From an uncultured Verrucomicrobiales bacterium (lineage in GTDB: Bacteria > Verrucomicrobiota > Verrucomicrobiia > Verrucomicrobiales > DEV007), in contig CALKOM010000034.1 in assembly GCA_938091905.1 (NCBI GenBank), positions 1 to 12,994 of the forward strand: DNA of 12,994 nucleotides. Direction: 5' to 3'. Position 1 is the stretch's first letter. Each line of letters opens with the position of its first letter. The notes below the pieces were generated by a model that was not told the origin of the DNA, made no database searches, and was given only the letters and a program-made list of their open reading frames with translations. Shown here one piece after another: positions 1 to 12,994 of the stretch. A program made the position numbers and the translations under genes.

Positions 1-412
1 CGACCTCGTAGACTTCTCCGTAGTTGTCGGTCTGATCGTTGCGGGCGACTTGGCCATTTGATTCGGCCACGTCCTCAAACATTTTCTGATCGATGCTGTA
101 CCAGTGACCAGGCTTAAGATCGCCATTGAGGCTTGGAGGAACGTCTGAGGGCCAGTAGACGCCATCGAATCGGCCTGTCTTGTAGGCGATCTGGTCTTTG
201 CCCACTGCCGGCTGACCTGCCATGATCTGGGAAACTCTGAGAGGAAGCACCTGGCCAACGGTGAAAGCCTGTAGCTCATGCGCAGACCCAGGGTAAATCG
301 CTGGGTCAGTCGAGGTAGAACACGCGGAAATCAGGCATGGGATGATCGTCCAGGCCAACTGTTGCAAAGAAAGGCGCTCATTCTTCATGTAGGTATTTCC
401 AAGTAGTGCCAT
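1..412 (-). CDS. Putative lipoprotein, hypothetical (partial; 3' end runs off the left edge)
   Basis: Not in the ORF track; translated by hand as an open frame from ATG 412 (alternative ATG 388) to position 1: MALLGNTYMKNERLSLQQLAWTIIPCLISACSTSTDPAIYPGSAHELQAF...GEVYEV. Lipobox-like I-S-A-C (Cys codon 322-320) follows a hydrophobic stretch and precedes an S/T linker. Purine-rich GGGAGAAG lies upstream of ATG 412. Confidence 0.7.
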   Translation of the reverse strand, partial: MALLGNTYMKNERLSLQQLAWTIIPCLISACSTSTDPAIYPGSAHELQAFTVGQVLPLRVSQIMAGQPAVGKDQIAYKTGRFDGVYWPSDVPPSLNGDLKPGHWYSIDQKMFEDVAESNGQVARNDQTDNYGEVYEV

Positions 413-596
413 GCGCTTCTCCCTCATCTTGATGTCACAAGATAAGCGACGATAGCTGAAAAGCATTGAGGTTTGCAAAACGCCTACGCTGATCCTCCTG
501 TCACTGCTTTCTCAAATGGCGAATCGCACCGGGAACGTTCCCTTCGGCTGAAATGACCTAGGCGGTGGTAGTGGGACCGATCGACAACGACAGAGA

Positions 597-628: not shown

Positions 629-996
629 CTATCGGCGATTTCCGAAAAGGTCAGAATCAAAAGCTATGAAGAAATAGTCTCCCCAAGCGCTTCCTCCGGT
701 CTCGATTGGGTTGAGCGAAAAGCGTAGGTGCTGCCTAACTGTAAACACATCGCTACTAGATTTCATGAAGCTTCCCAGCGCAAATCCGGGTGAAGCAGAA
801 ATGTTAGGATTCACAAGAAAGATGCCAGACGGAAGCGAGGCTGGCATTTGAGCGGGCAAACTTCCGTTAACGTCGAAGGAAAGTTCGGATTTGATCAGTT
901 GGAAGCCTGAGATGGTAACGGCTGCTTTCGAGCTACCCATGTGGGCGGCGATCATGAGGAGAATGGCTACAGCGCTTATATGATGTCGTGCTTCAA
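629..996 (-). pseudogene. Probable decayed secreted protein gene (N-terminus of PEP-CTERM-like style); frameshifted signal peptide, possibly 3'-truncated
   Basis: ORF 629-955 extends upstream in frame as ISAVAILLMIAAHMGSSKA/AVTISGF, which reads as a signal peptide with cleavage site but has no in-frame start. TTG AAG at 996 is 41 nt upstream of ATG 955, one base short of frame. No PEP-CTERM tail is visible. Confidence 0.4.
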
Positions 997-1173: not shown

Positions 1174-1779
1174 TTAACCGCCCTCGATGAGTACTGAGTG
1201 CATGCCGGCTGCTTCGGCTGCTTGAATGCCTAGTTGGCCGTCTTCAATGACGAGGCATTTACTAGGTTCGACGCCCATCCGTTTGGCGGCTTCAAGAAAG
1301 AGATCTGGGGCTGGTTTGCTATTCTCGACCTGATCTTGGGTGACCACGACCTCAAATAGTTCGCGGAGACCGATGGCTTCTAGGGTCTTAGTGACTGTTT
1401 CCCAGACGCCACCTGAAGCGACACCGACCGGGTGGGTGGCTGCCACGCGTTTGGCTAAGTCAACGACGGGTGGATTTGGCGAAACGCGGTGGAGATTGTC
1501 TCGATAGAAAGCCTCCTGATCGGCGACCACTTGCTCGGGATCGAGCGATTCGCTGAAGTGATCGTTTACACGGCGGACGGTTTCTAACATGCACACTCCG
1601 GCGAGAGATTGTGCAAAGTCGCGGTTCAGGGTGAAGGTGGCCCCGTTCTTCTTGTAAGCATGGATCCAGGCTTCGAAATGTAAGGCCATCGACAGCGCGA
1701 GTGTGCCATCATTGTCGAAGATATATCCTTCGAACGGTTGATTTGGGATCTCTAAGCCTTCAGGCGTGGTGATAGTCAC
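1174..1779 (-). CDS. HAD-superfamily phosphatase (beta-PGM/YqaB-like, subfamily IA)
   Basis: 201 aa, GTG start. Motif I FDNDGTL (DxD), motif II VASGG, motif III SKPAPDLF, motif IV IEDGQLGIQAA. Confidence 0.93.
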   Translation of the reverse strand: MTITTPEGLEIPNQPFEGYIFDNDGTLALSMALHFEAWIHAYKKNGATFTLNRDFAQSLAGVCMLETVRRVNDHFSESLDPEQVVADQEAFYRDNLHRVSPNPPVVDLAKRVAATHPVGVASGGVWETVTKTLEAIGLRELFEVVVTQDQVENSKPAPDLFLEAAKRMGVEPSKCLVIEDGQLGIQAAEAAGMHSVLIEGG

Positions 1780-1857: not shown

Positions 1858-4179
1858 ATGACGATCCGTTCTGTCTTTTCCACCTGCTTCATCCTCTCAA
1901 CTGCAGTTCTCGCTGCGGAGGAGGCGACTCCTGGCCACTCGTATCACGGCGAGAGTTTCAACGAGGGGCCGCGTCAGCAGGCTTATTTGATGGATACCAC
2001 GGGTGACATCAGCTTCCCCGTCTCGACGAAGAATGAGAAGGCGCAAGCCTTCTTCAATCAGGGCGTTGGTCAGCTTCATGGCTTCTGGTACTTCGAAGCC
2101 GAGCGTAGCTTTCGCCAAGTGCTCCATTTAGATCCGACCTGTCAGATGGCCTACTGGGGGTTGGCGATGTCGAATGTGAACAACGGCAAGCGTGCCAAGG
2201 AATTCATGAAGGAAGTAGAGGAAGCTCTCGAGAGCGAGAAGCTTACAGAACGTGAGCGCCTCTACTTGAAATCGCTGCACCGTTTCTACCATGGCGGCGA
2301 GAAGGATGCTAAGAAGCGTCATCGTGAACTGGTGCGGGACTACGAAGACATTGCGCTGCGTTTTTCAGAAGATATTGAAGCTCGTGCGCTCGCTGCTCAG
2401 CAGATTTGGTACAATGGCCGCAAAGGGTTGCCGGTTTCCAGTCACCTGTCAGTGGATGCGATGATTCAGCAAGTACTCGATGCGAAGCCTATGCATCCTG
2501 TTCATCACTACAAGATTCATTTGTGGGATAATGAGAGAGTGAAGCAAGCGCTTCCTTCAGCGGCACGGTGCGGGCAGTCTGCTCCTGGGATTGCCCACAT
2601 GTGGCACATGCCGGGACACACCTACTCCAAGACTCACCGTTATGAGGATGCTGTCTATCAGCAGTCCGCATCCGGCCGCGTGGACCATGCCCACATGATG
2701 CGCGATCATGTCATGCCTCACAAGATCCACAACTATGCGCACAATAACGGATGGTGTGCGGAGAATCTTGGTTTCTTGGGGCGAATTGATGAGGCGATTA
2801 GTCTTGCTGTAAATCTGATAGAATTGCCGAGGCCTGCGAAGTTTAAAAAGCTGGGCGAGACAGAGTATTACGATGCTGGTGGCACTCCCTTTAGGGAGGG
2901 GCGCAAGCGGCTTTGGGCATTGCTCAACGACTACGCGCTTTGGGACGAGCTTCTTCGCCTGAGTGAAACCTCGGTGCTTGCGGCCACAGATGATCCTCTC
3001 ATGCAGGCGAATAGGTATCGTTATCGTGGGATGGCCTATTTCTACAAGGGTGAGCTGGATCAAGGTCGTGGCGAGATCGCTGCCCTTGAGGAGTTCTTGT
3101 CAGGTTATGAGACTCAGCGAGACGAGGCTGGGGAAGCTGCTAAGACGAAGGCGGAGGAGAAGCAGAAAGATGAGGAAGACGAGAAGAAGCGTGATGAGGC
3201 CATCAAGAAGGCGGAGAAAGGGGCGCGCAAGCCCTATGATTCCATCGTCAAAGCCTGCCAATCATACAAAGGGCATCTCGAAGCGCATCTTGCTGTCCTT
3301 ACGGAACGTCCAAAAGTGGCCCGTGAGAAACTCGACAAGGCGAAAGGATTGTTAGCGATCGATAAAGCTCGTCTTCACATGGAGCTGGCGAACTGGGAGA
3401 AAGCTGCAGAGATTCTCAAGCGGGAGGTAGATGGCAAACGTAACCCTGTCGTCATGAAGTCGAACTATATTCGAACGCTCAAGCAGTTAGGCGAGAAGGA
3501 CACCGTGAAGAGAGAGATGGAATCGCTACGCAAGTTGGCTGCCACGGCGGATGTCGAGAGCCCTCCGATGGTCGCCCTCAGTGAGATTGCCAAGGAACTG
3601 GAGTTTCCTGAGGACTGGCGGCTTGCTCAAGATGAGCAGGACGACTTGATTGATCGACCTGACCTCGATGATTTAGGCCCATTCCGCTGGTCGCCTTCGG
3701 CGGCGCCGGAATGGCAGTTTTCTCAGGCAAATGGAGAGGTCATTGACTCAACCAAGTTTTCCAACAAACCGGTGCTGGTGATCTACTATTTGGGCCGCGG
3801 TTGTTCGCACTGTATGGAACAGCTGAATGCGTTTGCTCCCGAGGCTGACAAGTATCGGGAGGCAGGTATAGAGATCGTAGCGGTGAGCACGGATACTGTG
3901 GAGGGTCTGGCCAAGACCTTCCAGCAGGGCGAAGGCGAGAATCCCTTTCCGTTTCCGCTGGTTTCAGACGCTGAGAATGTGGGGTTCAAAGCTTTTCGCG
4001 CCTACGACGAGTTCGAGGACCAGGCTCTTCATGGCACATTCCTTGTAGACGGCACAGGCAAGATCAGGTGGCAAGACGTCAGCTATGAGCCCTTCATGCA
4101 TGCCAGTTGGCTTCTTGAGGAGTCCGAGAGGCTGCTGGCTACGGATGCCGTGATCGAAAGCCTTGTGGCGACCAAGTAA
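1858..4179 (+). CDS. Secreted TPR-repeat protein with C-terminal AhpC/TSA-like redoxin domain
   Basis: 773 aa with an N-terminal signal peptide (...STAVLA/AEE). TPR-like helices (AQAFFNQGVGQLHGFWYFEAERSFRQVLHLDPTCQMAYWGLAM) and His clusters follow. The C-terminal thioredoxin fold shows KPVLVIYYLGRGCSHC (CxxC at 3802-3813), IVAVSTD, FPLVSD and GTFLVDGTGKIRW. Confidence 0.88.
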   Translation: MTIRSVFSTCFILSTAVLAAEEATPGHSYHGESFNEGPRQQAYLMDTTGDISFPVSTKNEKAQAFFNQGVGQLHGFWYFEAERSFRQVLHLDPTCQMAYWGLAMSNVNNGKRAKEFMKEVEEALESEKLTERERLYLKSLHRFYHGGEKDAKKRHRELVRDYEDIALRFSEDIEARALAAQQIWYNGRKGLPVSSHLSVDAMIQQVLDAKPMHPVHHYKIHLWDNERVKQALPSAARCGQSAPGIAHMWHMPGHTYSKTHRYEDAVYQQSASGRVDHAHMMRDHVMPHKIHNYAHNNGWCAENLGFLGRIDEAISLAVNLIELPRPAKFKKLGETEYYDAGGTPFREGRKRLWALLNDYALWDELLRLSETSVLAATDDPLMQANRYRYRGMAYFYKGELDQGRGEIAALEEFLSGYETQRDEAGEAAKTKAEEKQKDEEDEKKRDEAIKKAEKGARKPYDSIVKACQSYKGHLEAHLAVLTERPKVAREKLDKAKGLLAIDKARLHMELANWEKAAEILKREVDGKRNPVVMKSNYIRTLKQLGEKDTVKREMESLRKLAATADVESPPMVALSEIAKELEFPEDWRLAQDEQDDLIDRPDLDDLGPFRWSPSAAPEWQFSQANGEVIDSTKFSNKPVLVIYYLGRGCSHCMEQLNAFAPEADKYREAGIEIVAVSTDTVEGLAKTFQQGEGENPFPFPLVSDAENVGFKAFRAYDEFEDQALHGTFLVDGTGKIRWQDVSYEPFMHASWLLEESERLLATDAVIESLVATK

Positions 4180-5244: not shown

Positions 5245-8200
5245 TTGACTGTGTCTTTAAAGCTAAGAGACATCATCACGGCGACGGACCGTGAGACAAG
5301 AGACACCTCTCTGGAAGCTATTTGCGAAGTGCTTAGCTTTGATGAGTTGATTGCCGAGTGCAAGAGTCTGGATCTTTTCCGACGGGAGAGTGAGAACCTT
5401 TACGAGCGCGTTCGTGCCCTCTTCTTCCTTTATGCAATTTACCGATTCTACCTCCCTGCGAAGCTGGAAGAAACGTCAAAAGACGGCGCTGCAGTCTCCT
5501 TTGAGGCGTACGCGCATTTGCTAGAAAGACGATTTTCTGAAGCCTTGGACCATTTCTTAGATGATCAGGCCTCTGCCGGGTACTCGGACGCGATTAGTAG
5601 CGCATTGGCTAAGACATACTACGAACTGGCGTTGCAGAATCTGGCGGACCAGGTGCAATCGAGTGTTCGGGCTGTCCGCGGAAACCAATGGATGTTCCGG
5701 ACTGGGGCGCTTGAAGACTATCCGTTGGAGGTTCGGTCGGAGCTGTTGCAATGTGAGAACAGTGCTTATCCGTTGATTTATGAGAGCACCGCTGTGCGCA
5801 TGGATCTTTCACATAGTGCATGGAGTGATATCTTCTTCCTTGGAATGGATTTTCCGAGTGGGGCTCGCGTGCTCAACATCTCCGTTGATCTCGCTGTGCA
5901 TGGGCGAGACGCTCACCCCAGGCCACCGGTGGAGGCTCGTTTTCGAGTGATCGATGAGCCCATTATCCGTCTTACTAGCGTCGATCTTGGAGTGTCCGCG
6001 GAGATCACTGAACTCGGGGATGTCTTCAACTTTGCGAAGGACTACCTTGGGCTTCTGAAGGCGGCCCTCATTGCCTCCGGCATCGTTCCTATGGGGTTAG
6101 AAGGGTCAGGACAGCGTTTATCTGTCTTGCTAGAGACATTGGTCGGACTTGGGCGAGGCTTCGAGTTGGTCAGTTGTGTCAATGATATTCCTAAAGGCAG
6201 TCGACTGGCGGTTTCTACGAATTTGTTGGGCGGTCTCATAGCGGTTTGTATGCGTGCTACGGGGCAGACACGGTCTTTAGAAGGGCCTCTTGGCGAGGGA
6301 GAGCGACGCATTACGGCGGCGCGAGCGATTCTGGGAGAATGGTTAGGAGGATCCGGCGGGGGCTGGCAAGATTCCGGCGGAGTCTGGCCGGGTATTAAAG
6401 TGATAGAAGGCTGCCCTTCTCGGGAGGGAGATCCCGAATATAGGATCAGTCGTGGGCGTCTGTTGCCACAGCATACCTTGCTAGGCACCGATGTTATTTC
6501 GAGTGAAATGCGAGATCGCCTCCGCGATAGCCTTGTTCTTGTCCATGGTGGAATGGCGCAGAATGTTGGGCCTATTCTCGAGATGGTGACGGAGAAGTAC
6601 CTACTTCGCTCTGCCAAGAGCTGGGAGGCGCGACAGGAGTCGATGCAGTTGTTCGATGCTATCCTTGCAGCCTTACAGTCGGGAAATATTAAATTGTTAG
6701 GAAAGCTGACAACAAAGAATTTCTTTGGGCCGCTGCAGACGATTATTCCTTGGGCTACGACTTTCTTCACTGAGCGCCTCATCGATTTGGTTAAGGTTGA
6801 ATTTGGAAAGGATTTCTGGGGCTTCTGGATGCTCGGCGGGATGTCGGGTGGTGGTATGGGGTTTATCTTTGAGCCTGGTCGAAAGGTTGAAGCTTTGGAG
6901 CGAATGAAAGTGATCATGGTTGAGCTGAAGGGACAGCTCCAGCACTCGTTGCCCTTCGCGATGGATCCGTTGGTGTATGATTTTAGCATCAATGAGGCGG
7001 GTAGTAGTTCTGAACTTCTGACGGGCGAAGCCGCTCTTATGTCTCCAGGATACTATGCGATGACCTTGCCATTGCTCTTGCGAGAAGATCCGCGGACGCT
7101 TTCGCAGGAACGGCGCGCGGAAATGGAACGGTTCGAGATTCGAGCGGACGCTGATACGAGCTATGATGAGGTAAGGGACAAGCTTCTTACCTACCTCTTT
7201 CCACGTTCGTTAAATGGTAATTCGTCGGAGTCCTCGCTGGATCAATTGCTAGATGCGAATGGTTTTGATCCGCCCTTGCATGAGCGGATTCAGGGGGACA
7301 TGCGAAGGGGGCTCATTGGACTTTCAAAGAATCGTTTGGCAGCGAGTTCACAGGTCAAAGATGTGCGCCCTGGCGATGTGACTATCACCACAACTGCGGA
7401 AGACGACGCCATTGGCCGTGAGGCGCTGTCGAATGGAGAAGTTGCAGTCGTCACCCTCGCAGCAGGTGCGGCTAGCCGCTGGACAGAAGGGGCGGGAGTT
7501 GTGAAGGCTTTGCATCCCTTCTGCAAGTTTGAGGGACGACACCGAACGTTCCTTGAGGTTCATTTAGCAAAGACGCGCTTTGCTGGGTCCACTCATGGAA
7601 TGTTGCCGCTTCATGTCATCACGACAAGCTACCTGACGGACGAACCTATCCGTGGCTTTTTAGATGGCGTCGATCACTATGGAATGAGCGATAGTGTGTT
7701 CCTTTCGAGAGGACGATCTATTGGATTGCGCCTAGTGCCCATGCAACGCGATCTCCGCTTTGAGTGGGAGGAGATGCCGCAGCAGCGCCTCGACGAACGT
7801 GCGCAGAAGATGCGTGCGAGTTTGCGCGAAGCCTTATTGGCTTGGGCTTCTGGTGCCGGTGAAGGGAGTGACTATCGCGATAATGTTCCGTTGCAGTGCC
7901 TGCATCCGGTGGGGCATTGGTATGAAGTGCCCAATCTATTGCTCAATGGAACGCTGGCAGACCTACTCTCGCAGCGACCTCAGCTCAGAACGCTGATGTT
8001 GCATAATATTGATACGGTCGGCGCCAATGTGGATGCAGCGATGCTTGGATACCATCGCCGTACGAATGCCGCACTAACGTTTGAATTGATTCGGCGCCGC
8101 TTGGAGGATCGGGGTGGTGGCCTCGCCCGCGTGAACGGTTCCCTAAGGCTAGTTGAGGGCCTTTCTATGCCGCGTGAGGAAGATGAGTTTAAGCTTACCT

Positions 8201-8562
8201 ATTACAACTCGAACACTTGCTGGATAGATATTGATCAGATGCTTGCTTGCTTCGGTCTAACACGTGCTGATCTTGGTGACGCACCCAAAGTGGCGCGATC
8301 TATCCGTGAGTTTAGTAGTCGACTCCCTACGTATATTACCCTCAAGGAGGTGAAGAAACGTTGGGGTCACGGGCAAGAAGACATCTTCCCGGTGGCTCAG
8401 TTCGAACGGTTGTGGGGAGACATGACAGCTCTTTCGGATGTTCCTTGTAGCTACGTTGCTGTGCCTCGACTACGGGGCCAGCAACTAAAAGAGCAAGCGC
8501 AACTTGATGGTTGGCTGCGCGATGGATCTCGCGACTTCACGGCTTCTCTGTGCGAGTGGTAG
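5245..8562 (+). CDS. GHMP-family sugar kinase fused to a UDPGP-family (UGPase/UAP/USP-type) sugar-1-phosphate uridylyltransferase
   Basis: 1105 aa, TTG start (or GTG 5251). GHMP motifs: [12 protein letters not shown] (~5794), [11 protein letters not shown] (~6187), GGGWQD (~6355), GGMSGGGMG (~6835). UDPGP motifs: [14 protein letters not shown] (7441), HPVGHW (~7903), HNIDT (~8002), RGGGL, NSNTCWI (~8206), QFE (~8398). Confidence 0.85.
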
Positions 8563-8563
8563 T

Positions 8564-10738
8564 TTAGCGAAGGATTCGATCTCGCAACTCATGCAAACGA
8601 TCTAGATGGATACCGGGAGGTTGTTTTTCTAACAACCATTCGATATCTGCGATGGCGCGCTGCCCAGCATTGCTCTGGTAGAGAAGGAGAGCTCTGCTCA
8701 GGTGCGAAGAGGCATCCTCAGGATCGATGGCTAAGAGGAGGTCGAGTTCTGGGATTGCTTGGGTTGGGTCTTCAGAGTCCAGGTCGATTCCGATGAGATT
8801 CCTTAGCATTCGAGTGAGAATAGAGCGTTTGCCCGCAGGATCGAGATCTGTTTCGTTGAGATCTCTGCCAGTTGTCGCGAGCACTAAGTTTTCGGCGTCT
8901 TCCGTGGTGAGCAGTTTACCACCATCAAATACATCGATCAGTTGATTTTTACCTTCTCCGGAGCGGTGTTGCAGCACGAAGTGGCCCGGCAATGGAATCC
9001 CGTGAAGGCCGGTGACTTCAAGTCGTTGCGCGAGTTCCATGTAGAGCACTGACAACGTGATGGGGATTCCCTCGCGATCTTCCAGCACCACGTTCAGATA
9101 ACTATTGTCGCGGGCATAATAGTCGCTCCGACTGCCGTGAAAGCCGAGTTGCTGAAATAGGTAGTCTGACAATGAGGCGAGCTTCTCCGTTGCATTCGCA
9201 TTCTCCTTCAGTGAGCTGCGGATTTCTTCTGCCATGGAGTCCAACTCTTTGCGATAAGCTTCCACGTTGAGATTAGGATCATTGAGTAGTGCGATCAGAA
9301 GTCCGGTATGAAAAAGATCGATTTCATGATCCTTCTTGTTTTCTAACAAACGCTTTGTCTCTTGGATGACGTGTTGGCGGTGTAGGTCAAGTGACCAGTT
9401 TCGTAAGTTCTCTGCCTGTATCTCAAGGGCGCGTGCCTTCTCTTCGATAAGTGCTTTAGCAATCTTTGGTGTTGATTCTAACGTTGATACGCTATCTTCG
9501 TTGGGTTCCTTGAGCCACTGATTAAGCGCCTCGTTGAGAGCCGGATCTATCTGCTCAACGGCACCAGCTTCCCCATGCGAGAATGCTTGAAAGGAAGCTG
9601 CCGTATCGCGGAACTTGCAGAGGCCAACCTGTCCGCCGCGTAGAGCTTCATGCTCGACACTGACGACTTCATCGCCATTGACGTAGCCAGTGATGGTGGC
9701 TCCGTTGACCACGACTCGGAGGTGATTCCATTCGCCTTGGCGGTAGGATGGAACGGGAACGTCCGCTAGGATGTTCCAGGAAAACACATCCGGCCCTGCG
9801 AAATGAGTGAGTCGGAGTTGCCCGCCACTGGGATAAAAGCCGTAGTGTCGATCTCCACCATCTGAGGCAAAGGCAAGACCAGCCGCTCCTGCTTCGTCAT
9901 CGAGCCTAACTTTGACCTGTACATCGAAGGCTGTCTCGTTTGGGGGGGCTTGATAAAGGCAAAGCGATCGCCCACCGAATCCGGCGGCTTTGCCGTTGAC
10001 GGAAATGGTTCCGGCGCGCTGCCGCCAGTCTGCTCCTTCTTGGAGTGGCTTCCATTGGCGTGGGTTCAATTTTCCAACCGTTACCCAACGTTCGATGGGG
10101 ATGGGATTGGGGCTTTCCAACAAGAGTTTTAGCGCGTTCACCGGCATAGCGAAACCGATGTTGTCGCTTACCTGGGATTTCAGTGACGGGATCCCGATCA
10201 CTTGGCCTTGTCGGTTGAGTAGCGGGCCGCCACTATTTCCAGGTTCTATCGGAATTGCTAATTGAATCATCGAATAGCCTTCCATGGCTCGAGTAGCGGA
10301 GACGACACCTTCTACCACGCTGAAACGAAACCCCTGAGGATTCCCCATGGCCACGACGGAGAGTCCATCGGGGATATTGTCAGAGTTGCCTAGCGGAAGT
10401 GTGGGGACATTCTCTTCCGTGACTCGTATCAGGGCGAGATCAAGCTTGCGATCTGAGGCATGGATACTCTTCACAGTGAGTTCCTTCCCATCAGAGGTTG
10501 TCACCCGAATCCTTCGTGCTTCGCCGATGACGTGAAGATTAGTGGCGATGAGCCCTTTCTTGACGAAGAATCCGGAACCCTCTCGATCGGCGCGCCCGGG
10601 GCGTGAATCGTGAGTGATGGTAACCAGCGAAGGGCGTACTTCTCTAGCGATGACTTCTGAAGTCTTGTCCTCCTCGTTCGCGTAAGAGTTTAGCACGAAG
10701 GAAACAATGAAGAGAGCAATGAACCGATATCTCACCAT
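8564..10738 (-). CDS. Secreted multidomain protein: trypsin-like serine peptidase + DUF1080/LamG-like domain + SirB1 (transglutaminase-like) domain + TPR
   Basis: 724 aa with a signal peptide. The S1 triad is intact: ATNLHV, DLAL, GNSGGPL. A beta-sandwich follows (AGLAF...GEWNHLRVVVNGATITGYVNG...GGQVGL). SirB1 motifs are GFHGSRSDYY..NSYLNVVLEDREGIPITLSVLY, LPGHF and RMLRNL, then a terminal TPR. No PDZ domain. Confidence 0.88.
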   Translation of the reverse strand: MVRYRFIALFIVSFVLNSYANEEDKTSEVIAREVRPSLVTITHDSRPGRADREGSGFFVKKGLIATNLHVIGEARRIRVTTSDGKELTVKSIHASDRKLDLALIRVTEENVPTLPLGNSDNIPDGLSVVAMGNPQGFRFSVVEGVVSATRAMEGYSMIQLAIPIEPGNSGGPLLNRQGQVIGIPSLKSQVSDNIGFAMPVNALKLLLESPNPIPIERWVTVGKLNPRQWKPLQEGADWRQRAGTISVNGKAAGFGGRSLCLYQAPPNETAFDVQVKVRLDDEAGAAGLAFASDGGDRHYGFYPSGGQLRLTHFAGPDVFSWNILADVPVPSYRQGEWNHLRVVVNGATITGYVNGDEVVSVEHEALRGGQVGLCKFRDTAASFQAFSHGEAGAVEQIDPALNEALNQWLKEPNEDSVSTLESTPKIAKALIEEKARALEIQAENLRNWSLDLHRQHVIQETKRLLENKKDHEIDLFHTGLLIALLNDPNLNVEAYRKELDSMAEEIRSSLKENANATEKLASLSDYLFQQLGFHGSRSDYYARDNSYLNVVLEDREGIPITLSVLYMELAQRLEVTGLHGIPLPGHFVLQHRSGEGKNQLIDVFDGGKLLTTEDAENLVLATTGRDLNETDLDPAGKRSILTRMLRNLIGIDLDSEDPTQAIPELDLLLAIDPEDASSHLSRALLLYQSNAGQRAIADIEWLLEKQPPGIHLDRLHELRDRILR

Positions 10739-12021
10739 TCGATTCGGTCCTCAGATGAAATGAAGGCATTGGCCGCAGCCATATTGGTCACAGCCATTTT
10801 GTTCGGGTCCCACTCAAGGCGCTCGCCGGGTGTTCTAAGTGCGACATTCCCTAACAAGACGGCCTCTGTAAGTGGGCCACTATAAGAGAAGTTTGCGCCG
10901 GCAGGTTGGCCACCTTTGCAAGCATCAATGAACTCCTGATAGTGACCTGAGGAACGCGGTAGCGTGGCGCTCGGACGCTTGTAGGCCTGCATGGCCTTTT
11001 CAGGAATCAAACGCACGCCATCACCGAGTCCTCCAGTCATGATCTTGCCCTTATTGCCAATGTAGAGTGTGCCACCGAAGTGATCTCCCATTTGGCGATT
11101 AGCCTCAAGTTCGGCAGGGCGTTCAGGCACACGTTTGCCATCGTGCCAGACGATTTTGACAGGAGGGAAGCCATCGCGTTTCGGGAACTGATAGGTGATT
11201 GTTGATGCCTTGGGCGCGGTTTCTTTCGAAAGGCCGCTGGCTTCGGCTTGCACGGATGTGGGCGCGGTTAACTTGAGACTACGGAAGATTGGATCGAAGT
11301 GATGGCATCCCATGTCGCCAAGCGCACCACAGCCAAAGTCCCACCAGCCGCGCCATTTGAACGGATGGTAAGCTGGATGATAGGGTCTCACGGGGGCAGG
11401 GCCTAAATAAAGATCCCAATTGATATGGTCAGGAACTGGTGGCGAATCCTTGGGCCGCTCGATGCCTTGGGGCCAGATTGGGCGGCTGGACCATGTGTGA
11501 ACCTCGGTGACATCGCCGATGGCTCTGTCGGCGATCCATTCGGTCAGGACGCGATGCGAGTCCTTGGCATTCCACTGGATTGACATTTGTGTTGCGACGT
11601 TCGTCTCGGCTGCGCGCTGGGTTACTTTGCGTGCTTCCGCGACTGTACGCGTCATGGGCTTGGCACAGTAAATGTGCTTTCCTAGATCCATCGCTGCGAG
11701 TGCGATACTCGCGTGCGTGTGATCTGGGGTGCCGATGACGACTCCATCGATGTGTTTCTCCTTCTCCAGCAGGATACGAAAGTCCTCGTAGCGTTTGGCT
11801 TTGGGGTATTGGGAGAAGGTCTTTGCGGCAAATTCGGAATCGACGTCTGCGAGAGCCACGATGTTCTGGCTAGAGAGTTCCTTGAGATAGTTGGCTCCCA
11901 TGCCTCCGACGCCGACGCCCGCGAGGTTGAGGGTCTTACTGGGTGCCCTGGCTCCTAGAAGATCGTTCGCTATGACGAGAGGCACCGCTGCTGCACCCTG
12001 AATGATTTCACGCCGTTTCAT
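10732..12021 (-). CDS. Gfo/Idh/MocA family NAD(P)-dependent oxidoreductase with twin-arginine-type N-terminus
   Basis: 429 aa. MKRREII start, Rossmann motif GVGVGGMG, TPDHTH, KHIYCAKP, WDLYLGPAP and WRGWWDFGCGALGDMGCH. The stop overlaps the next start (ATGGTGA, 7 nt). Confidence 0.95.
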   Translation of the reverse strand: MKRREIIQGAAAVPLVIANDLLGARAPSKTLNLAGVGVGGMGANYLKELSSQNIVALADVDSEFAAKTFSQYPKAKRYEDFRILLEKEKHIDGVVIGTPDHTHASIALAAMDLGKHIYCAKPMTRTVAEARKVTQRAAETNVATQMSIQWNAKDSHRVLTEWIADRAIGDVTEVHTWSSRPIWPQGIERPKDSPPVPDHINWDLYLGPAPVRPYHPAYHPFKWRGWWDFGCGALGDMGCHHFDPIFRSLKLTAPTSVQAEASGLSKETAPKASTITYQFPKRDGFPPVKIVWHDGKRVPERPAELEANRQMGDHFGGTLYIGNKGKIMTGGLGDGVRLIPEKAMQAYKRPSATLPRSSGHYQEFIDACKGGQPAGANFSYSGPLTEAVLLGNVALRTPGERLEWDPNKMAVTNMAAANAFISSEDRIEW

Positions 12022-12151: not shown

Positions 12152-12508
12152 ATGGATTCAATCGCGTCGTCGTCAGGGGCTACTCGCCCGTCTCTCATTC
12201 TGGAGGAATGGGCTGTTCAGCAGCTCAAAACCCACTGGCTGAATCTTGAAATCCTGGAGGTTTTCCCTCTGAAGGCAAAAGAAATGGTTTCTTTCAAGGG
12301 GACGATGCCTGAGGTCAGGGAGATCGGTATCCGCCTGTTGACGGTAGATCCCAAGCACGCAGGGGGATCGGCTCGTCTAGCCTTGGCTTTCCACCGGGCG
12401 CAAGCTCTGGTCGGCATCGAGAATGCCTTTAGCATTCCTACCCTGCAAGCAGAAGCGTGGCCAGCGGTGTCCGAAACGCCATGCTGTCATCAGTTCCAAG
12501 GGATTTGA
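12152..12508 (+). pseudogene. Possible truncated gene start (one TPR-like repeat); tail reads into the antisense of the porin remnant
   Basis: ATG follows the AT-rich patch. RLLTVDPKHAGGSARLALAFHRAQALVGIENAF resembles a TPR unit. The last ~18 codons overlap the minus-strand porin fragment. Confidence 0.3.
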
Positions 12509-12760
12509 AGCCTACTCCGAAATCGAATTTGTCCACTATTCCGCCCAAAAAGACATGATAGTAGTCAGCTTGATAGTCTAGCGGGCTGTCGGCGGCATCT
12601 GTCTGGTGCGCATACTCCGCTAAGAACCTCAGCTTAAATGGGTCTGAGAGCGGATAAGTTCCAGACAATGATAGACCAAAAGTATTGTTGCTTTGGGCAT
12701 TACCTGCGTTGTTTTCAAGATCCAGGAGGTAGGCATAGGCAGTAACTTTGGTATTTGGGA
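12438..12760 (-). pseudogene. Internal fragment of an alginate-export (AlgE-like) family outer-membrane beta-barrel gene
   Basis: The frame extends upstream of the track ORF: PNTKVTAYAYLLDLENNAGNAQSNNTFGLSLSGTYPLSDPFKLRFLAEYAHQTDAADSPLDYQADYYHVFLGG...GFKSLGTDDSMAFRTPLATL. It shows amphipathic beta-strands and the family-like FxTPLATL motif. The usual H.FNGWAD continuation is missing and the 5' part is cut at the IS end. Confidence 0.75.
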
Positions 12761-12831
12761 TGGAGTTCCCCCAAGAAAGTGGACATGGACCGGACAGATC
12801 GCTCTGTTAGTTTAGGTGTGTTTTCTGCGTT
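12761..12831 (-). mobile_element. Terminal remnant (probable right end) of an IS3-family element
   Basis: Starts TGGAGTTCCCCCAAGAAAGTGGACA, the 5'-TG ... GGACA pattern of IS3-type IRs, exactly where porin homology stops. The minus frame reads AENTPKLTERSVRSMSTFLGELH, resembling an OrfB tail that runs through the IRR. Confidence 0.55.
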
Positions 12832-12994
12832 TGGAAGTGGTAGCCCCAAACGGAGCCATGTAGCTATTGAGATTTCGAAGGCTCGTCTGCGGTGATCAAC
12901 CCAAGTAAAACAGACGAAATGAAGCGAAAGAGAAGACACCTCACACCTGAATTCAAAGCACGAGTCGCCATCGAAGCCCTTCAGGGCCTCAAAA
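12832..12994 (+). mobile_element. IS3-family insertion sequence, left end (partial)
   Basis: IR-like TGGAAGTGGTAGCCCCAAACGGAGCCA starts at 12832, 87 nt upstream of a transposase OrfA start. The true left end could alternatively be 12761. Confidence 0.65.
12919..12994 (+). CDS. IS3-family transposase OrfA, N-terminus (partial)
   Basis: Not in the ORF track; translated by hand as MKRKRRHLTPEFKARVAIEALQGLK, a characteristic HTH_Tnp_1 N-terminus (RR.F/L..EFKA.VA.EAL.G.K). Confidence 0.88.
   Translation, partial: MKRKRRHLTPEFKARVAIEALQGLK

Follow-up and report, generated by a model that had tools for sequence, protein, structure and literature searches.

Does the longest open reading frame (ORF) in a 12,994-nucleotide (nt) stretch of a Verrucomicrobiales genome encode a sugar-activating enzyme and, if so, is that enzyme complete in one polypeptide? 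The stretch, referred to below as the window, covers positions 1 to 12,994 of contig CALKOM010000034.1 in the assembly of an uncultured Verrucomicrobiales bacterium (GCA_938091905.1). Its longest ORF (P0001; 5245-8562, plus strand) encodes 1105 amino acids (aa) plus a stop codon. A preliminary description, made from the letters alone, read the product as a GHMP kinase joined to a UDPGP-family pyrophosphorylase, which would convert a free sugar to a sugar-1-phosphate and then to a uridine diphosphate (UDP)-sugar within a single chain. We find this interpretation partly supported. The large protein, as we call it here, is probably part of a two-protein machine that turns a free sugar into an activated sugar, and the large ORF starts 3 nt past the stop codon of the gene for its candidate companion, a divergent GalU-like nucleotidyltransferase.

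The reading that we favor, with a probability of roughly 0.55, is that the large protein is the larger subunit of a sugar-activating enzyme, encoded by a conserved pair of genes and made up of three modules, in which an anomeric kinase is coupled to UDP-sugar formation. The domain structure and conservation of the large protein, the near-constant presence of the GalU-like gene beside it, and a predicted complex between the two products are set out below, together with three other explanations of the same features.

Architecture of the large protein

The ORF opens with a TTG codon; an alternative GTG start at 5251, two codons in, would give a protein of 1103 aa, which is the length of a record that is 99% identical to it (P0002). 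A chance ORF or an artefact is ruled out by at least 8000 homologous clusters and by full-length conservation at 58-99% identity. Within the kinase region lies a 316-aa antisense ORF (6042-6992, minus strand), which is most likely a by-product of coding-strand composition; antisense ORFs of similar kind upset ORF calling in high-GC loci.

An AlphaFold2 model built on an alignment of 77 family members reached a predicted local distance difference test score (pLDDT) of 90.8 and a predicted template modeling score (pTM) of 0.89. It shows helices only from residue 1 to 172, an alpha/beta kinase region (176-592), a helical linker (601-651), and a second alpha/beta region (665-1105). On the plus strand of the window, these parts correspond to an N-terminal, all-helical, family-specific domain at 5245-5760 (DSSP of the models, fold search, and Atlas); a fucokinase-like GHMP kinase domain at 5770-7020 (kinase part of PRK13412, Fkp matches in the PDB, Foldseek, and Atlas); the linker at 7045-7197 (DSSP of the AlphaFold2 model); and a UDPGP-type nucleotidyltransferase domain at 7237-8559 (PF01704, family profile against the PDB, and Foldseek). 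Pfam, PRK13412, AlphaFold2, and Foldseek agree on the proposed order of helical region, fucokinase-branch GHMP kinase, and UDPGP domain, and a Foldseek search of the PDB with the full-length model matched Fkp, the fucokinase/pyrophosphorylase fusion, at E 7.7e-19.

The N-terminal region had been described as having an unfamiliar fold, and this holds: a fold search of the PDB with residues 1-172 gave no match at E ≤ 0.001, the best hits being generic helical repeats at E 0.54, and an Atlas search with the domain returned its own family only, plus TPR/HEAT leads that scored under 0.9. Modeled alone, the domain has a pLDDT of 83.8.

A large and misannotated bacterial family

A word-indexed search found at least 8000 homologous clusters at 90% identity, all at E ≤ 0.001, and the best 120 of these matches are full-length proteins of 1074-1137 aa with 62-99% identity, one of them from Coraliomargarita akajimensis DSM 45221. 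An exhaustive search of representatives at 50% identity returned 2736 proteins at E ≤ 0.001, of which 562 reach E ≤ 1e-30, and contigs representing one genome per species encode a relative in at least 558 species genomes (558 of the 599 pattern matches encode one). The best 80 of these species-genome loci (L001-L080), with groups assigned from record titles, form the locus set used below; 49 are from Verrucomicrobiota, 17 from Chloroflexota, six from Planctomycetota, and three from Armatimonadota, with one each from Acidobacteriota, Ignavibacteriaceae, and a record labeled Bifidobacteriaceae, and two that are unlabeled. The nearest of them, with 88% identity, is a metagenome-assembled genome of another uncultured member of the Verrucomicrobiales (L003).

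As the preliminary description expected, database records name the uridylyltransferase only or call the protein hypothetical: among the best 120 matches we found "hypothetical protein," "UTP--glucose-1-phosphate uridylyltransferase," and, once, "galactokinase/mevalonate kinase-like predicted kinase." The large protein thus belongs to a large, uncharacterized, and misannotated bacterial family. Its size does not sit well with the further remark that UDPGP enzymes are mostly eukaryotic, given the 2736 bacterial-type representatives and the number of species genomes that carry a relative. Nor are UDPGP enzymes exclusively eukaryotic elsewhere, because a Bifidobacterium UDP-sugar pyrophosphorylase (USP), a bacterial enzyme in synthetic use, is of the UDPGP family (PMC5974040, in the part available).

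Full-length relatives from other phyla are 58-63% identical to the large protein, and identity at this level across phyla is, so far as sequence comparison can tell, the mark of purifying selection. The Chloroflexota and Planctomycetota copies fall in this range of 58-63%, and other families of Verrucomicrobiota stand at about 60-63%; such similar identities within and across phyla point either to very strong constraint or to transfer of the gene from one phylum to another.

Variant architectures occur among the more distant members. In one relative (P0234), the order is permuted to UDPGP, helical, and kinase, which suggests that the coupling of kinase and UDPGP domains is independent of their order. 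Two giant relatives contain the whole helical-kinase-UDPGP module: P0141 (2318 aa) joins it to a ROK sugar kinase and to a domain of the inositol-monophosphatase family, and P0152 (2939 aa) joins it to a ROK kinase. A family profile search found no GalU-like domain in these giant fusions. Natural split forms of the large protein were not found among the shorter matches that we inspected, which are fragments of the full-length type.

The kinase domain and its nearest relatives

Several lines of evidence place the kinase domain closest to that of Fkp. NCBIfam's model of Fkp, PRK13412, matches residues 179-560 at E 6.7e-17 through its kinase part only (profile positions 611-950 of 974), and the score of 60.5 bits against a cut-off of 721 does not make the protein an Fkp. 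Sequence matches of the domain in the PDB are to the Fkp kinase domain (9iip, 5yys, and 9iit) at E 4e-8, or 3.8e-11 with the family profile. Foldseek aligned the domain to the kinase part of Fkp (9iip) with a template modeling (TM) score of 0.84 and to the heptokinase WcbL (4usk) with 0.81, so that, in a model of pLDDT 90.8, residues ~180-590 have the two-lobed GHMP fold whose absence would have spoken against the original proposal. An Atlas feature search with residues 173-598 gave clusters of GHMP_kinases_N in 29 of 30 matches.

Residues were mapped by setting a HMMER alignment to Fkp against the roles given in a 2025 crystal-structure study of that enzyme (PMC11982464, in the part available). 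There, R592 stabilizes the leaving group, S719 is a metal ligand, E751 is an essential glutamate, and D762 is the proposed general base; the sugar contacts include W599, D601, T602, and Q761, and D762 and R592 also contact fucose. In the large protein, the first GHMP motif (residues 185-195; 5797-5829) supplies R185 (Fkp R592), W193 (W599), and D195 (D601), and is followed by I196 (5830-5832) at the position of T602, where a sugar contact is replaced by isoleucine. E365 (E751) precedes the sequence GGGWQD (371-376), in which Q375 is Q761 and D376 is D762 (6337-6372 for both), and a further GHMP motif, recognized from the Fkp alignment and family conservation, lies at 6832-6870. The motif at 185-195 and the GGGWQD motif are thus where the preliminary description had placed them. 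All four catalytic residues of Fkp are kept (R185, S324, E365, and D376), as are five of the six fucose contacts, T602 alone being altered, and in the 77-sequence family alignment every mapped position is either invariant or conserved in at least 90% of members.

GHMP motif II is typically a glycine- and serine-rich phosphate loop of the type PxGSGLGSS. In the large protein, it is a variant (6187-6219): the loop reads KGSRLAVST, as compared with AGSGLGTSS in Fkp, so that the Gly-Ser start and Ser-Thr end are kept, with S324 at the position of S719, and two glycines are replaced, G715 by R320 and G717 by A322. The arginine-bearing form GSRLAVST prevails in the main clade; in distant members, the loop is GSGLAVST.

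The fold comparison raises a first alternative, in which the kinase would phosphorylate C1 of a sugar 6- or 7-phosphate, a phosphatase would remove the distal phosphate, and the UDPGP domain would then form the UDP-sugar, bypassing a phosphomutase in the manner of the HddA/GmhB/HddC route. The TM score to WcbL is nearly equal to that for Fkp, two independent giant relatives are fused to ROK sugar kinases and one of the two also to an inositol-monophosphatase-family domain, and extra basic residues in and near the phosphate loop (K317 and R320) are conserved in the main clade. However, PDB sequence matches are to Fkp only, with no heptokinase even when the family profile is used, and a heptokinase as nearest sequence relative is accordingly not supported; the tryptophan stacking against the C4-C5-C6 face of fucose has its counterpart in W193; the ROK-fused relatives carry glycine rather than arginine at the position of R320; and, in the bacterial loci, neither neighbor analysis nor a scan of flanking ORFs revealed a linked phosphatase or ROK gene. 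We regard a route through sugar phosphates as decidedly unlikely.

The UDPGP domain

The C-terminal domain passes the gathering score of Pfam UDPGP (PF01704) at residues 897-999, with 31.3 bits against a cut-off of 22, in a match that spans only profile positions 173-279 of 413, about a quarter. Over the whole domain, the UDPGP fold is recovered by Foldseek, with TM scores of 0.55-0.62 and 390-490 aligned columns to structures of UAP and UGP enzymes. Its PDB sequence matches are eukaryote-type UGPases such as 2i5k, and a family profile of the domain matches 12 UGP/UAP sequences in the PDB, its alignment to UAPs extending to the N-terminal loop region.

UDPGP enzymes typically have a loop of the form G-G-x-G-T-R/x...K and a C-terminal catalytic lysine. 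The candidate nucleotide-binding loop of the large protein, located by family conservation at 7456-7506, reads LAAGAASRW...K754, and in the family alignment G741, R745, and G749 do not vary and K754 hardly does; in relatives, the loop reads LAGGVGSR or LAGGLGTR. The UDPGP core motifs, including PRLRGQQLK (7912-8490; UGPase alignments and conservation), are conserved in the family and match UGPase motifs where HMMER aligns them. We assign the roles of individual residues within these motifs by assumption, and K1082 is presumably the C-terminal catalytic lysine. The kinase residues and recognizable nucleotidyltransferase motifs are thus kept, as first claimed, and nothing in the sequence suggests a decayed pseudo-enzyme.

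A GalU-like gene accompanies the large gene

The partner gene (P0272; 4330-5241, plus strand), which the preliminary description had overlooked, encodes a divergent GalU-like nucleotidyltransferase of 303 aa, recognized from Pfam, TIGR01099, PDB matches, and synteny. Its product matches Pfam NTP_transferase at 1e-8, and its best PDB matches are YngB/GalU, at E 2.4e-18. GalU enzymes have a signature loop GxGTRxLPxTK. The N-terminal loop of the partner is KAVITAAGERQRHLPLQT, and the loop as scored in the test for the GalU signature, AAGERQRHLPLQT, departs from that signature and follows a family consensus of AAGxxQRxLPLQT. In an alignment of 59 rows, made up of 57 full-length and two truncated homologues, the extended consensus AAGxxQRxLPLQT...DGxxK holds in all 57 full-length sequences. 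The partner family also keeps EQxEPxGYGHA, GDH, and LEKP, all invariant, and with them what we take to be the uracil-binding glutamine and the magnesium-binding aspartate.

With tblastn, 77 of the 80 loci show a GalU-like gene upstream of the large gene and on its strand. By our own ORF calls, it directly precedes the large gene on that strand in 55 of the 76 loci that have an upstream ORF, and the two counts differ because of overlaps in ORF calling. One locus in which tblastn found no match (L070) has only about 210 nt of upstream sequence. This near-constant pairing, together with the predicted binding described below, is where the notion of a self-contained, one-polypeptide system fails. 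Six records that resemble fusions of the GalU-like and large parts (P0183, P0202, and P0273-P0276) were discounted, their junctions and tails resembling read-through or frameshift products.

Little else is conserved around the pair. The next commonest neighbor cluster occurs in 12 of 79 loci and stems from antisense ORFs called in error, and real families occur in at most seven of 79. Of the 134 nearest flanking ORFs that lie beyond the GalU-like gene, 100 were scanned with Pfam, roughly the shorter third being left out. They are unrelated genes, mostly with housekeeping functions, among them four for phosphoglycerate kinase and others for sigma-70, DNA polymerase I, IF-3, and thioredoxins. 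Across the 79 loci and the scanned flanking ORFs, a transporter or phosphatase is not a conserved neighbor either. Because the flanks are unrelated housekeeping genes and no other neighbor is conserved, the unit is a two-gene module in core-genome surroundings, and it is not part of a polysaccharide-utilization or glycan-synthesis cluster.

The housekeeping context, the variant phosphate loop of the kinase, and the variant nucleotide loops of both nucleotidyltransferases would all suit a second alternative, in which the kinase-like domain, or the partner, is a noncatalytic sensor or regulator of a plain UDP-glucose pyrophosphorylase, as GalF, a weakly active GalU paralogue, is with GalU. The kinase, however, keeps its general base, arginine, glutamate, and metal-binding serine nearly invariant, and the variant loops are strongly conserved rather than decayed, which makes noncatalytic modules very improbable.

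Predicted binding of the two proteins

Complex prediction was run on the whole partner and residues 1-600 of the large protein, with a family alignment supplied for both, and returned a score of 0.77, as compared with 0.01 for the best of three controls. Of 157 solved complexes, 116 reach that mark, as do two of 215 mismatched pairs; both counts are only approximate here, own alignments having been used. Three runs share at least 95% of contacts, with a partner pLDDT of at least 85, and the predictor puts the GalU-like protein where the helical domain meets the kinase domain. The predicted interface comprises residues 145-162, 279, 336-341, 352, and 356 of the large protein and residues 151-156, 183-189, 192, and 198-199 of the partner, and it falls on invariant columns: GNQWMFR...PLR in the large protein, and E152 and EKPTPTEAE in the partner. 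The large protein's side includes a predicted docking segment, residues 145-162 (5677-5730, plus strand), identified from the complex prediction and from conservation, in which G146, N147, W149, M150, F151, R152, and L161 are invariant in 59 sequences. In the docking segment, pLDDT drops below 50 when the N-terminal domain is folded alone, with confidence lost over residues 148-160, and stands at 85-90 in the full-length model. The prediction supports binding of the GalU-like partner to residues 1-600 of the large protein.

A third alternative takes this docking as its starting point: the partner would use the kinase product, as in an Fkp split over two chains, and the UDPGP domain would be independent, for example as a housekeeping UDP-glucose pyrophosphorylase. 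The partner is predicted to sit on the helical/kinase half, and in Fkp a short helical linker between pyrophosphorylase and kinase packs on the kinase (PMC11982464, in the part available); mutations in the pyrophosphorylase domain of an Fkp alter the sugar preference of its kinase, according to the available text of PMC12732313; the module is located among housekeeping genes; and records label the large protein a UGPase. On the other hand, the fusion of kinase and UDPGP domains persists in different phyla, and in the permuted relative too, the whole-chain pTM of 0.89 suggests a fixed arrangement of the two, the docking prediction covered residues 1-600 only, and the nucleotide loop of the partner is noncanonical. 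We consider a split Fkp unlikely.

Weighing the proposed two-protein enzyme

A fused and co-conserved kinase and pyrophosphorylase have, as their simplest reading, the sequence sugar, sugar-1-phosphate, UDP-sugar. In the two-gene, three-module enzyme that we favor, the kinase domain would phosphorylate the anomeric hydroxyl of a free sugar using ATP, and the UDPGP domain would join the resulting sugar-1-phosphate with uridine triphosphate (UTP) to give the UDP-sugar. Because the pocket keeps five of six fucose contacts of Fkp, an L-galacto or D-arabino-like sugar is our first guess for the substrate. The GalU-like partner would be a second pyrophosphorylase, of the UDP-hexose type, in the same complex; the features behind this assignment include the retained Glu and Lys of the VEKP type.

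A number of observations weigh against this reading. The Pfam evidence that had been anticipated came out in part only, UDPGP passing its threshold while GHMP_kinases_N finds no match in the large protein and GHMP_kinases_C scores 12.5 bits against a gathering score of 21; GHMP_kinases_N is passed by a distant full-length relative (P0156). The phosphate loop has arginine and alanine at two glycine positions of Fkp, and the nucleotide loop of the UDPGP domain has AGAASR, as compared with GGxG(S/T)R in relatives. The partner scores 78.2 bits with the galU model TIGR01099, far under the cut-off of 326.8 and therefore outside GalU as that model defines it, and it lacks the second glycine and the threonine of the GalU signature. 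By tblastn, no partner gene was found in two loci (L015 and L072) despite about 1 kb of upstream sequence, and neither neighbor clusters nor the Pfam scan of flanking ORFs revealed an epimerase or glycosyltransferase linked to the module. The complex score is a model confidence and not a measurement. The fusions to ROK and inositol-monophosphatase domains (P0141 and P0152) fit a sugar-phosphate route at least as well as one from a free sugar, and a fucose-like pocket and a UDP-forming domain fit together poorly because UDP-L-fucose is, to our knowledge, not a known metabolite. Finally, our literature and database searches found no measured activity for any family member.

Why would one kinase need two pyrophosphorylases? 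The most economical role, which is speculative, would be a Leloir-like exchange: one pyrophosphorylase would make UDP-X and pyrophosphate, and the other would spend that pyrophosphate on UDP-glucose to give UTP, so that both UTP and pyrophosphate are recycled locally. Sugar-1-phosphate and UDP-glucose would then yield UDP-sugar and glucose-1-phosphate, as with GalT, with UTP and pyrophosphate passed between sites; the module would be the equivalent of GalK plus GalT, and an epimerase would be needed elsewhere. Carried to its end, this picture is of a self-contained Leloir-type metabolon, assembled from parts that had not been met in combination before, in which an Fkp-like anomeric kinase is clamped between a UDPGP-type and a variant GalU-type pyrophosphorylase. 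It would serve Verrucomicrobiota, Chloroflexota, Planctomycetota, and Armatimonadota as a core pathway by which sugars enter or nucleotide sugars are supplied, and we consider it unlikely.

Kinase-pyrophosphorylase fusions such as Fkp are workhorses of one-pot nucleotide-sugar synthesis, and a bacterial kinase-UDPGP enzyme could open a direct way from free sugars to UDP-sugars. The module is very widespread and strongly conserved: its sequence clusters number in the thousands and come from at least six phyla of polysaccharide degraders that are dominant in the environment. Further, the family is now mislabeled as UDP-glucose pyrophosphorylase or left as hypothetical, and the identity of the substrate would correct metabolic reconstructions of these phyla.

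Other genes in the window

Tail to tail with the large ORF, their stops 1 nt apart, is a gene for a 724-aa protein (8564-10738, minus strand) with an unusual succession of domains, namely a trypsin/HtrA-like protease, a 3-keto-disaccharide hydrolase/LamG domain, a transglutaminase-like core2 (SirB1-like) domain, and TPR_9, in that order; Pfam and NCBIfam gave no PDZ match in its protease domain. The same protein is also encoded at the 88%-identical locus L003. The gene for a GFO/IDH/MocA oxidoreductase (10732-12021, minus strand) overlaps this protease-fusion gene, which lies downstream of it, by 7 nt; its product scores 477.8 bits (E 3.3e-143) with the model of the BT_2158-type glycoside 3-dehydrogenase, below the equivalog cut-off of 750. 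An oxidoreductase beside a 3-keto-disaccharide hydrolase domain hints at a 3-keto-glycoside pathway.

Upstream, a 773-aa protein (1858-4179, plus strand) begins with TPR-like repeats and ends in an AhpC/TSA (peroxiredoxin/redoxin) domain, and is also found upstream in L003. A HAD hydrolase of the beta-phosphoglucomutase family (1174-1779, minus strand) scores 136.7 bits with TIGR02009, below the cut-off of 153.35; it was rejected as a partner, being linked elsewhere in L003 alone. Small or end-truncated ORFs at 629-955 (minus), 2-478 (minus), 12152-12508 (plus), and 12715-12993 (minus) have no Pfam or NCBIfam match at E ≤ 0.01.

Comparison with known systems

No characterized full-length homologue turned up in literature and PDB-side searches, in keeping with the novelty first claimed, and full-text literature yielded no paper on a GHMP-UDPGP fusion, with most subscription journals outside its coverage and prior work therefore possible. 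The main text of a 2025 phylogenetic survey of FUK, GFPP, and FKP proteins contains neither "UDP" nor "uridylyl" nor "Verrucomicrobi" (PMC12732313). The constant pairing with a variant nucleotidyltransferase is apparently undescribed, as far as the literature search shows.

Among known enzymes, Fkp of Bacteroides fragilis (5yys, 9iip, and 9iit) is the closest point of reference, its kinase being the nearest solved relative by both sequence and fold. The two share the catalytic Arg, Ser, Glu, and Asp and the sugar contacts Trp, Asp, and Gln, the union of an anomeric kinase and a pyrophosphorylase in one polypeptide, and helices ahead of the kinase domain. They differ, as the preliminary description had pointed out, in domain order and in pyrophosphorylase family: in Fkp, the pyrophosphorylase is N-terminal and consists of GFPP plus a beta-helix (PMC11982464, in the part available), whereas here it is C-terminal and of the UDPGP family. 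The large protein also has a 172-residue helical domain in place of the three-helix linker of Fkp, an isoleucine for T602, the phosphate loop GSRLAVST, and an obligatory-looking second nucleotidyltransferase gene beside it.

The UDPGP domain resembles eukaryote-type enzymes (yeast Ugp1, 2i5k; the Arabidopsis thaliana enzyme, 2icx; and UAP, 8yp3) in Pfam score, fold, and core motifs, with none of UGP, UAP, and USP clearly nearest. Unlike them, it is bacterial, is fused behind a kinase, and has the loop AGAASR. The partner shares EQxEPxGYGHA, GD(H), and (V/L)EKP with GalU and YngB and differs in its signature loop, G-x-x-Q-R-x-L-P-L-Q-T, and in being paired with a large protein (77 of 80 loci). 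Kinases of D-glycero-D-manno-heptose 7-phosphate (HddA/WcbL) belong to the same GHMP sub-branch by fold (TM 0.81), but they gave no PDB sequence match, and the pyrophosphorylase of heptose pathways is a separate, short NTP_transferase.

Another natural fusion of a GHMP sugar-1-kinase and a nucleotidyltransferase for UDP-sugar salvage is DrGKUP of zebrafish, which, in contrast to the large protein, has an N-terminal short NTP_transferase of bacterial type and a C-terminal kinase of the glucuronokinase branch; its putative UDP-GlcA pyrophosphorylase activity was not demonstrable in vitro, according to the part of the study available (PMC3938481). Seen against these systems, the large protein is a new architectural variant of known kinase/pyrophosphorylase salvage enzymes rather than a new principle, and the mechanistic question that it raises is why a single kinase should need two pyrophosphorylases.

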